Shown: piece by piece, positions 1,698 through 2,229 of the stretch
Layout of the letters: every line of letters starts with the position of its first letter
Numbering within the stretch: position 1 is the stretch's first letter
Assembly: GCF_003334315.1 (NCBI RefSeq)
Contig: NZ_QOWR01000085.1
DNA from: Escherichia coli
GTDB taxonomy: Bacteria > Pseudomonadota > Gammaproteobacteria > Enterobacterales > Enterobacteriaceae
Reading direction: 5' to 3' (one strand)
DNA length: 11,574 bases
Notes under the pieces: model-generated
The model's input: the letters and a program-made list of their open reading frames with translations, nothing else
Told to the model about the DNA's origin: nothing
The model's database searches: none
Made by a program: the position numbers and the translations under genes

Positions 1698-2229
1698 GGG
1701 CTGGTTTATTGTATGCCAAATGATTATTAAAAAGGTTGTGTTAATAACAAAATCCGAAATAATATGCCTGCATATTTTTATCTTGCTTATATTCTGCATA
1801 TTGTGCATAGCAGGCTCATCCCTGCAATCAAAACTGTATGATGAGTATTTTTTGTTTTCCTTTTTTCCAGTCATCTGATGATGACCTGCTTCTTTTTAAT
1901 CCGGATCGACATCAGTTTTTTAAGATAATTCCTGCGAGTTATATGCATAAATACCACAAACTCCGCATTTTATGTGGTTGGGAGTTGCCGGGCGCGCAGT
2001 GAGTTTGCTAAGAAAACTCCTGCATGGTGAATCCCCCTGTGCGGTGGGGTGATACCATTAACCTTTTCTGTCGCCGACAGGTATCACGAACATTTTGTTC
2101 ACCGGGAGGCACCCGGCACCATGCACTTCAATAGATTCTCTCCACATTATGGATATTCTTTCAGAATATCCCACGCAGACTTTGTGTAAATGTTAACAAA
2201 TGTGCGTTTTATTTGATCTGATTCGCTGT

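Follow-up and report, generated by a model that had tools for sequence, protein, structure and literature searches.

The analysed stretch of DNA (hereafter the window) comprises 11,574 nucleotides from Escherichia coli (RefSeq assembly GCF_003334315.1, contig NZ_QOWR01000085.1) and covers the late region of a lambdoid prophage. Genes for NinB (41–415) and an HNH endonuclease (415–705) precede that for a Q-like antiterminator of 180 amino acids (702–1244, + strand). Two paralogous genes for TolA-domain lipoproteins (2289–2717 and 2868–3263) then lead to the lysis cassette, which encodes holin, endolysin and Rz (3458–4688, + strand). Between Q and the first lipoprotein gene lies a GC-rich island, which, like the late genes, is assigned to the + strand. 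As first described, the island does stand out from an AT-rich spacer, with a G+C fraction of 0.55–0.56 compared with 0.34 in both flanks. The order of Q, element and lysis cassette, all on the late-operon strand, matches the placement of the published STnc100, EcOnc27 and PasD RNAs.

The spacer between Q and the island contains further signals. A bidirectional terminator lies at 1322–1354, and a promoter/terminator scan identified a promoter-like site followed by a terminator (1672–1697) within 1615–1697. Either the first terminator or the promoter–terminator pair could represent the pR′/tR′ unit. A BLAST search of phage sequences with the spacer (1245–2021) gave matches confined to its first 60 nt, and pR′ therefore cannot be placed by homology. 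On the other side of the island, a strong promoter-like site for the lipoprotein gene was found at 2230–2259 (10/12 matches in the promoter scan), separate from the promoter-like site of the island itself. The island had been placed about 170 bp upstream of the lipoprotein promoter; this site lies ~105 bp past the island, and the stated ~170 bp instead matches the spacing to the ATG at 2289.

Palindromes had drawn attention to the island. The perfect 8-nt inverted repeat (GTGATACC/GGTATCAC) is present at 2049–2056 and 2080–2087 with 23 nt between its arms, as is the inner palindrome CTGTCG-c-CGACAG at 2068–2073 and 2075–2080. The third element, the hairpin CCGGG-AGGCA-CCCGG, also exists, but its arms lie at 2102–2106 and 2112–2116, slightly left of the position originally given (about 2103–2119). 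On its own, a repeat of this kind is unremarkable: with loops of up to 30 nt allowed, the window holds 19 such perfect 8-nt seeds at 8 places, compared with 5.6 ± 2.8 in dinucleotide shuffles. The 103-nt stretch 2022–2124 folds with −43.3 kcal/mol (z = −3.3), and 0 of 200 shuffles folded as well. What exceeds chance is the whole 103-nt unit, in both its fold and its covariance-model match, and not the single repeat. The sequence-only reading had covered just the middle of this domain, overlooking its closing helix (2022–2029/2117–2124), the hairpins at 2033–2048 and 2088–2100, the upstream promoter-like site and the 3′ module.

An STnc100-family domain between Q and the lysis genes

The sole above-threshold match in an Rfam scan of the window was to STnc100 (RF02076). 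The full model (1–206) aligned with positions 1992–2178 of the + strand at 86.6 bits (E = 6.7e-18), compared with a curated gathering threshold of 47 bits. A permissive Rfam scan of 1950–2230 (E up to 10) returned no credible family besides STnc100, with no match to riboswitch, ribozyme or tRNA-like families, and a MicA-like match on the minus strand (15 bits, E = 7) was dismissed as chance. A tRNA, tmRNA or tRNA-like element was likewise rejected: ARAGORN found 0 genes, and no tRNA, tmRNA or Y-RNA-like Rfam family matched at E up to 10. The resemblance to tRNA is limited to layout, in that an 8-bp helix is stacked on a 5-bp hairpin. With the STnc100 match, the island is identified as the core of a catalogued prophage small RNA of the STnc100/PasD/EcOnc27 family, and finding it here is a rediscovery; Rfam-based annotation would label the locus STnc100. 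Within this family, the window copy is a distinct cassette variant.

Minimum free energy (MFE) and centroid structures agree on a multi-helix domain closed by P1, with P2 following the junction AAU and P5 abutting P1 (all on the + strand). In P1, GCAUGGUG (2022–2029) pairs with CACCAUGC (2117–2124), forming a closing helix around four arms. The junction AAU (2030–2032) separates P1 from the P2 hairpin CCCCC-UGUGCGGU-GGG(G) (2033–2048), which is found in the MFE and centroid structures and in the alignment; G2049 can be assigned to either P2 or P3. The P2 sequence is nearly invariant among relatives, with the loop consensus U-N-N-G-C-G-G and rare compensatory variants (CCUUUC/GAAAGG). P3 (2049–2056/2080–2087) is the 8-bp inverted repeat described above, a class-specific cassette helix with a 23-nt loop. 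The inner palindrome CUGUCG-C-CGACAG (2068–2080) contributes only a 4-bp mini-hairpin (2069–2072/2076–2079) to the predicted fold and is not conserved, since relative L137 carries an uncompensated change to CUAUCG and the hairpin is missing from the sibling copy L051. P4 is a small hairpin, GAACA-UUU-UGUUC (2088–2092/2096–2100), that directly abuts the 3′ strand of P3; in other classes it has 5–9 bp and a loop of 6–20 nt bearing a pseudoknot strand. P5, CCGGG-AGGCA-CCCGG (2102–2116), directly abuts the 3′ strand of P1 and is almost invariant across Enterobacterales, with the rare variants CUGGG/CCCAG (both sides changed) and CCGGG/CCUGG (G-U). A lack of both conservation and covariation in related prophages had been proposed as a refutation; for the outer repeat and the CCGGG hairpin the outcome was the reverse, but the inner palindrome is not conserved.

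Downstream of P1, a C/U-rich linker, ACUUCAAUAGAUUCUCUCCACAUUAU (2125–2150), is unpaired in the centroid structure and is followed by two hairpins. The first is a perfect 9-bp hairpin, GGAUAUUCU-UUC-AGAAUAUCC (2151–2171), with no U tract after it; the Rfam model aligned this hairpin to the STnc100 terminator with the U tract deleted. The second module (2173–2214), predicted in both MFE and centroid structures, consists of an imperfect 11-bp hairpin (2173–2185/2196–2207) and the tail UUUUAUUU (2207–2214), and is a candidate intrinsic terminator. Apart from the U tract, the window shares with STnc100 the helices P1, P2, P4 and P5, the position in a lambdoid prophage and the late-operon strand. 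It differs in the central cassette, where model positions align with low confidence and with non-standard pairs. In most STnc100 members the P4 loop is long and takes part in a pseudoknot, whereas the window has a nested 8-bp helix and a tiny P4 loop.

The element is widespread. Among 5426 complete E. coli genomes, 1459 contain it or parts of it, and in 461 of these the match is nearly full-length. Hundreds of sequenced E. coli genomes carry identical copies of the locus, that of strain ECCHD184 (NZ_CP033250, 2184163–2184403) among them. Matches were also found in 363 phage records, mostly of Stx-converting phages, and two motif scans located the element in more than 240 viral contigs. A 19-nt motif was present in at least ~16 Enterobacterales genera, with the complete domain in 82 of 136 matches; genera carrying the element include Salmonella, Citrobacter, Enterobacter, Klebsiella, Pantoea, Erwinia, Rahnella and Superficieibacter. 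Its placement does not vary: it follows Q, in many cases with tRNA genes or a moron in between, and is succeeded by another moron or by the gene for holin. Min27, mEp460, E2348/69 and many viral contigs share this context.

Covariation, exchangeable cassettes and a pseudoknot

We scored a structure comprising P1, P2, P4, P5 and the pseudoknot on an alignment of 47 diverse domains. The covariation score was 0.259, compared with 0.157 ± 0.007 in shuffles (0 of 500 reached it) and at most 0.107 when the partners were slid. In the same count, 81% of cells were paired, as opposed to 39–46% with slid partners, and the value for P1 alone was 91.5%. Pairs changed on both sides were found in P1 (4 of 8), P4 (all 8 tested), the pseudoknot (5) and P5 (1).

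The domain is built from two near-invariant blocks, P1–P2 (GCAUGGUGAAUCCCCCU..GCGG.GGGG) and P5–P1 (UCACCGGGAGGCACCCGGCACCAUGC), around a cassette of 40–70 nt that is exchanged as a unit. Compared with phage mEp460, which belongs to the pseudoknot classes, the window is identical from 2098 onward, nearly identical in P1–P2 and unrelated in between. As the two share flanks and differ only between them, the palindromes picked out by the sequence-only reading correspond to the cassette.

In almost every other class of cassette, the strand following P2 is complementary to the P4 loop, forming a pseudoknot for which more than 25 distinct covarying duplexes were found. Examples are CUGGUG/CACCGG, AUCAGC/GCUGAU, CCAGUC/GACUGG, AAGGUUG/CAACCUU and CCAGUUA/UAACUGG, as well as UCCAGCCA/UGGCUGGA and GCCAGUCUG/UGGACUGGC. 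A complementarity of at least 6 nt was present in 52 of 62 classes. When cognate and non-cognate pairings in the 62 classes were compared by the same maximising procedure, the longest complement averaged 6.6 nt for the former and 4.6 nt for the latter, and reached at least 6 nt in 84% and 24%, respectively. The structure line of Rfam STnc100, as printed by cmscan, contains no pseudoknot pairing.

The class of the window is arranged differently. Its P4 loop has 3–5 nt and no pseudoknot partner, and in three classes, among them that of the window and that of its sibling, the complement on the true P4 loop is only 3 nt. Instead, the post-P2 strand in the window class pairs with the segment immediately 5′ of P4, giving the nested 8-bp helix P3. 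The sibling copy L051 has P3 arms GUGAUAUC/GAUAUCAC, which are changed on both sides with complementarity kept. Because a helix formed by the post-P2 strand can stack on P4 in both arrangements, the nested helix may take the place of the pseudoknot helix, so that the modelled shape would be kept with other connectivity.

These patterns bear on whether the island acts as DNA. The sequence-only reading had offered a protein-binding operator and a structured RNA as alternatives. Perfect palindromes are indeed present, and recombination breakpoints fall in the conserved blocks, both between the window and mEp460 and in the partial matches in E. coli genomes, which begin or end there. A site acting at the DNA level could thus be a repressor-type operator, or the blocks could be homology joints at which mosaic modules recombine. 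However, the helices, including the pseudoknot, are held by compensatory substitutions and G-U pairs, a pattern that makes sense only for an RNA read from the + strand, and the relatives are abundant RNAs. What the arms conserve is their complementarity and not their sequence, and on this ground the operator reading fails. In addition, the cassette is replaced in mEp460, and no gene for a DNA-binding regulator adjoins the palindromes, the neighbours being those for Q, HNH endonuclease, NinB, the lipoproteins and the lysis proteins. We therefore consider a DNA-level site extremely improbable. The structured-RNA reading, by contrast, is borne out by the full-length STnc100 match, the compensatory changes in the helices and the homologues, which are expressed, Hfq-associated RNAs.

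Transcription unit and possible roles

By eye, we recognised a σ70-like candidate promoter upstream of the domain (1985–2014, + strand). It reads TTGCCG-N18-TAAGAA, with the −35 hexamer at 1985–1990, the −10 hexamer at 2009–2014 and a TG (2006–2007) one base before the latter, and its end lies 7 nt ahead of G2022. Both the consensus and the counterparts in relatives are stronger, and the promoter scan missed this site. Among 228 distinct relatives, the best −10-like hexamer ends 4–7 nt before P1 in 142, with a peak at 6 nt (68 relatives), and a TG extension is present in 105. From this spacing, the predicted transcription start is G2022, at the base of P1.

The PasD RNAs of enteropathogenic E. 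coli E2348/69 fit this prediction. By its published coordinates, PasD1 spans NC_011601 1060260–1060432 (173 nt), where 1060260 is the first G of GCAUGGUGAAUCC; its estimated 5′ end is thus the G equivalent to G2022. Put in terms of structure, PasD RNA starts at the first G of P1 (GCAUGGUG), as predicted for the window. PasD1 and PasD2 (Pearl Mizrahi et al. 2021, PMC8550237; Zhu, Shabalina & Storz 2026 preprint) share with the window the 5′ block GCAUGGUGAAUCC and the position between Q and holin and, given the candidate promoter and terminator of the window, also the promoter geometry and the layout of domain, linker and terminator. They differ in that P5 is lost and the P2 loop shortened, and they fall below the Rfam threshold, with a pseudoknot (AAUGAUC/GAUCAUU) kept. 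Their linker, with the seed UGUGAG, is unrelated to that of the window.

At the other end, the hairpin at 2173–2207 was missed by the terminator scan because of its bulges and 10-nt loop. If this candidate terminator is used, the RNA would end at ~2210–2214 and be ~190 nt long, within the range of the family (172–173 nt for PasD, 206 nt for the Rfam model). EcOnc27 gave northern sizes of ~235/247 nt (PMC4104026), above the prediction for a start at P1; some members may therefore start ~60 nt further upstream. A conserved motif of relatives, TTAAAT...CACAATTCAG, lies in that upstream part, and the window has its equivalent at 1946–1962. In relatives, complete units of promoter, domain, linker and terminator also occur in tandem arrays before a holin gene, which confirms them as stand-alone genes. 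Three relatives (L043, L107 and L114) lack both promoter and terminator and lie immediately ahead of a gene.

The succession of promoter, closed multi-helix domain, terminator and gene resembles the layout of a transcriptional riboswitch. The element could accordingly be a cis-acting leader, similar to a riboswitch or attenuator, whose fold decides between stopping and reading through into the moron or lysis genes. We examined this idea in silico by blocking the 5′ strand of P1, which melted the terminator in 30 of 119 members; moreover, in the three members without a terminator a gene follows directly. However, the terminator was unaffected in the other 89 members, the window class included, and we rejected a riboswitch-like coupling of P1 and terminator as a feature conserved across the family. 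The 30 responders include E. coli members whose terminator shares CGGAGGGGC with P2, so that the response looks lineage-specific. Furthermore, the linker between P1 and the terminator varies from 25 to 90 nt and is unconserved, the lipoprotein gene has its own strong promoter-like site (2230–2259) and published relatives accumulate as terminated RNAs. A regulatory leader is therefore distinctly unlikely.

A related possibility is that the element is the leader of the late promoter, either a pR′/6S-like RNA with a Q-utilisation site or a put-like antiterminator RNA. In favour are its placement after Q and ahead of the lysis genes, its constitutive-looking candidate promoter and the candidate terminator ~190 nt downstream. 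The pR′–tR′ unit of phage lambda has a comparable layout, a promoter with a terminator ~190 nt downstream. Like lambda 6S RNA and the pR′–tR′ leader of phi80, the element would yield a short terminated transcript between Q and the lysis genes, but it has no sequence or structural similarity to either. In phi80, pR′ is followed by an early terminator, the same layout as in the window, in the absence of an STnc100 domain. The phi80 'M3 RNA' was considered as a copy of this element and rejected, since M3 is annotated as an oop homologue and no STnc100 domain lies between phi80 pR′ and the holin gene.

The put RNAs of phage HK022 are cis-acting antiterminators that consist of two stem-loops and make RNA polymerase resistant to terminators. 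They resemble the element in being structured RNAs just downstream of a lambdoid-phage promoter. Unlike put, the relatives of the element are Hfq-bound and end at their own terminator, indicating that they are not self-antiterminating, and no homology to put was detected. The element also differs from the lambda and phi80 leaders in that it is not tied to the type of Q and can be far from pR′. It follows three unrelated Q types, of 180 amino acids in the window, 273 in mEp460 and 144 in Min27. Stx2 phages carry it downstream of stx2B, so that Q, tRNA genes and stx2AB all precede it, with pR′ placed upstream next to Q (PMC4104026). The three Q types and the position after stx2B argue against a Q-specific late-promoter leader. 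Additionally, two other terminators (1322–1354 and 1672–1697) intervene between Q and the element in the window. Taken together, a late-promoter leader of either kind is very improbable.

The explanation that we favour, and regard as probable, is that the island belongs to a gene for an STnc100-family, Hfq-associated small RNA, placed in the prophage late region between Q and the lysis cassette. The σ70 promoter would start transcription at G2022, burying the 5′ end in helix P1, and the RNA would stop near 2210–2214, at ~190 nt. Hfq would bind through the 3′ hairpin and U tail, as published for relatives. The 103-nt 5′ domain would serve as a stable, nuclease-resistant scaffold, in which the cassette keeps shape rather than sequence. 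Pairing in trans with mRNAs would involve the C/U-rich linker (2125–2150) and not the palindromes. During lytic growth, the element would be read through within the Q-antiterminated late transcript.

Published work on relatives agrees with several of these steps. Enterohaemorrhagic E. coli EDL933 carries 11 STnc100 copies, which are expressed, one of them confirmed by northern blot (PMC5331693). EcOnc27 is Hfq-associated by Hfq-CRAC (PMC4104026) and PasD by RIL-seq (PMC8550237); the relatives are abundant, and their expression or Hfq association has also been published elsewhere (PMC5331693, PMC7873438). PasD1 and PasD2 carry the target-derived seed UGUGAG in the equivalent linker, just before the terminator, and the Hfq cross-link peak and northern probe of EcOnc27 map to the equivalent linker and terminator. 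As the PasD seed and the EcOnc27 peak fall in this part of the RNA, the linker at 2125–2150 is a likely pairing region in the window and, by analogy, a candidate seed. Antisense targets of the linker or the cassette loop within the window were limited to matches of 8–9 nt, about what is expected by chance by our estimate. Reported target evidence for members of the family consists only of RIL-seq chimeras, in silico pairing with fimZ and overexpression effects.

Some observations fit a plain Hfq-dependent small RNA less well. In the window, the promoter-like site is weak and uncalled and the candidate terminator is imperfect. The model does not explain why a pseudoknotted domain of ~100 nt, in which junction and loop nucleotides hardly vary, is conserved across genera when the proposed seed region is unconserved, nor does it explain members that lack promoter and terminator and directly precede a gene. 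Alternatively, function may reside in the folded 5′ domain, which would then be a distinct and widely conserved pseudoknotted fold acting otherwise than by base pairing. Placed just upstream of the lysis genes, it would offer a platform to a small ligand or to a protein of host or phage, for which it could be a decoy or sponge, and the Hfq-bound tail would be secondary. Conservation is strongest in the paired blocks, AAU, U-N-N-G-C-G-G and AGGCA, and not in the linker. More than 25 different duplexes preserve the pseudoknot topology, and in the window a helix that stacks in the same position takes its place; the domain also occurs directly upstream of a gene without promoter or terminator. However, PasD, a validated relative, lacks P5 and falls below the Rfam threshold, so that an abundant Hfq-associated RNA can do without the full domain, and no riboswitch, ribozyme or tRNA-like Rfam family matched. 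We consider such a platform rather unlikely. If it were true, the cassette would be a tolerated or specificity-conferring insert and the Hfq-bound 3′ tail an add-on, and the window copy would demonstrate that a nested helix stacked on P4 can stand in for the pseudoknot helix with the fold kept.

To the published descriptions, our analysis of the small RNA family adds a covarying pseudoknotted core with near-invariant ends and a swappable cassette. The start apparently falls exactly at the closing helix, the published PasD seed lies outside the domain, and the window class swaps the pseudoknot for a nested helix. In many enterobacterial prophages, the family occupies the site beside the lysis genes where morons are inserted; in Stx phages, this is immediately behind stx2B.

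EcOnc27/sRNA103 (Sp5 and 933W, downstream of stx2B; Tree et al. 2014, PMC4104026; PMC7873438; PMC12711010) belongs to the same family and, again, sits where morons are inserted, after the late promoter and ahead of the lysis genes. It differs from the window copy in its pseudoknot-type cassette, its strong GC-rich terminator and its convergent antisense partner AsxR. The convergent dyad of EcOnc27 with AsxR/AgvB (Tree et al. 2014) has no counterpart in the window: AsxR/AgvB gave no Rfam match there, and their conserved 3′ 20-mer (...TTGCCCGAACCCACTCGGGCTTTT) was not found at up to 3 mismatches. The genes that follow differ as well, TolA-domain lipoprotein genes in the window and nanS-p after EcOnc27. 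In one study, variation in the stx2B-adjacent copy ranked with the strongest predictors of haemolytic uraemic syndrome (PMC12711010).

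Candidate promoters and terminators between Q and the RNA domain

Upstream of the folded domain of the STnc100-family RNA, a perfect 14-nt inverted repeat (CGTAAAAAAACCGC / GCGGTTTTTTTACG, window 1322-1354) lies 78 nt beyond the stop codon of Q. The repeat consists of an A-run followed by a GC hairpin and a T-run, and looks like a bidirectional intrinsic terminator. A second terminator (1672-1697) was located downstream of a promoter-like site (1615-1644). The 1322-1354 terminator, on the one hand, and the promoter-like site with its terminator (1615-1697), on the other, are both candidates for the pR'/tR' unit, the late promoter and early terminator that follow Q.

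Closer to the domain, E. coli relatives carry the motif TGTTAAAT-N5-CACAATTCAG about 60 nt upstream of P1, the closing helix. Its counterpart in the window, CATAAATACCACAAACTCC (1946-1962), may be a second promoter, further upstream; such a start would agree with the 235- and 247-nt bands of EcOnc27, the EHEC relative.

Variation within the element

In E. coli members such as L002, L009 and L060, hairpin P2 and the usual terminator, which sits downstream of the domain, have identical 3' strands (CGGAGGGGC in P2, AGCCCCUCUCCGGAGGGGCUUU in the terminator). When P1 was blocked in silico, the terminator melted in 30 of 119 members and was kept in the sampled non-E. coli members. The strand identity and the P1-dependent melting may reflect either chance or a switch specific to one lineage.

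The conserved blocks of the element contain mosaic breakpoints, at window 2098 and also within 2022-2048. The window and phage mEp460, which carries a related copy, are 100% identical from 2098 past 2300, whereas their cassettes (the swappable stretch between the blocks) and upstream regions differ. Additionally, the match in many E. coli genomes is restricted to 2098-2200 or to 2001-2125. The conserved ends of the element may be recombination joints.

Tandem and gene-proximal copies

Complete STnc100-type units occur in tandem, two to four per array, in L250 (Superficieibacter electus), L177, L272 and L051, each unit comprising a promoter, a domain with its own cassette, a linker and a terminator. 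The L250 array (~12800-13500, minus strand) holds three units spaced ~260 nt apart, and a holin gene lies ~60 nt beyond the end of the last one.

A divergent class of the domain, with a GCGGC... P2 region, was observed in L043 (~9530-9690) and at the equivalent positions in L107 and L114. In these loci tRNA genes lie just upstream, neither a promoter nor a terminator is recognisable, and the Shine-Dalgarno sequence and ATG of the next gene follow directly 3' of the domain. Judged by eye from its N-terminal sequence, that gene looks TerB-type. The divergent class may represent a 5'-UTR or processed version of the element.

Protein-coding features and a distal repeat

Downstream, two small paralogous proteins (2289-2717 and 2868-3263) match the TolA C-terminal domain TIGR02794 at 75.6 and 47.2 bits, respectively; the first (phrog_5772) is the "lipoprotein" of the sequence-only reading. 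The pair looks like a moron that has a promoter-like site (2230-2259) and a terminator (3389-3406) to itself, and possibly an exclusion function.

A 46-codon GTG ORF (2049-2189, plus strand) overlaps the RNA domain, and in some RefSeq genomes 2098-2200 is labelled as a "hypothetical protein"; protein annotation across the RNA gene is probably an artefact. A perfect 12-nt inverted repeat (TTATAAAGAAAA..., 4924-4958), with seed hits only, lies within the large ORF (4808-6283) or just past the point where that ORF begins.
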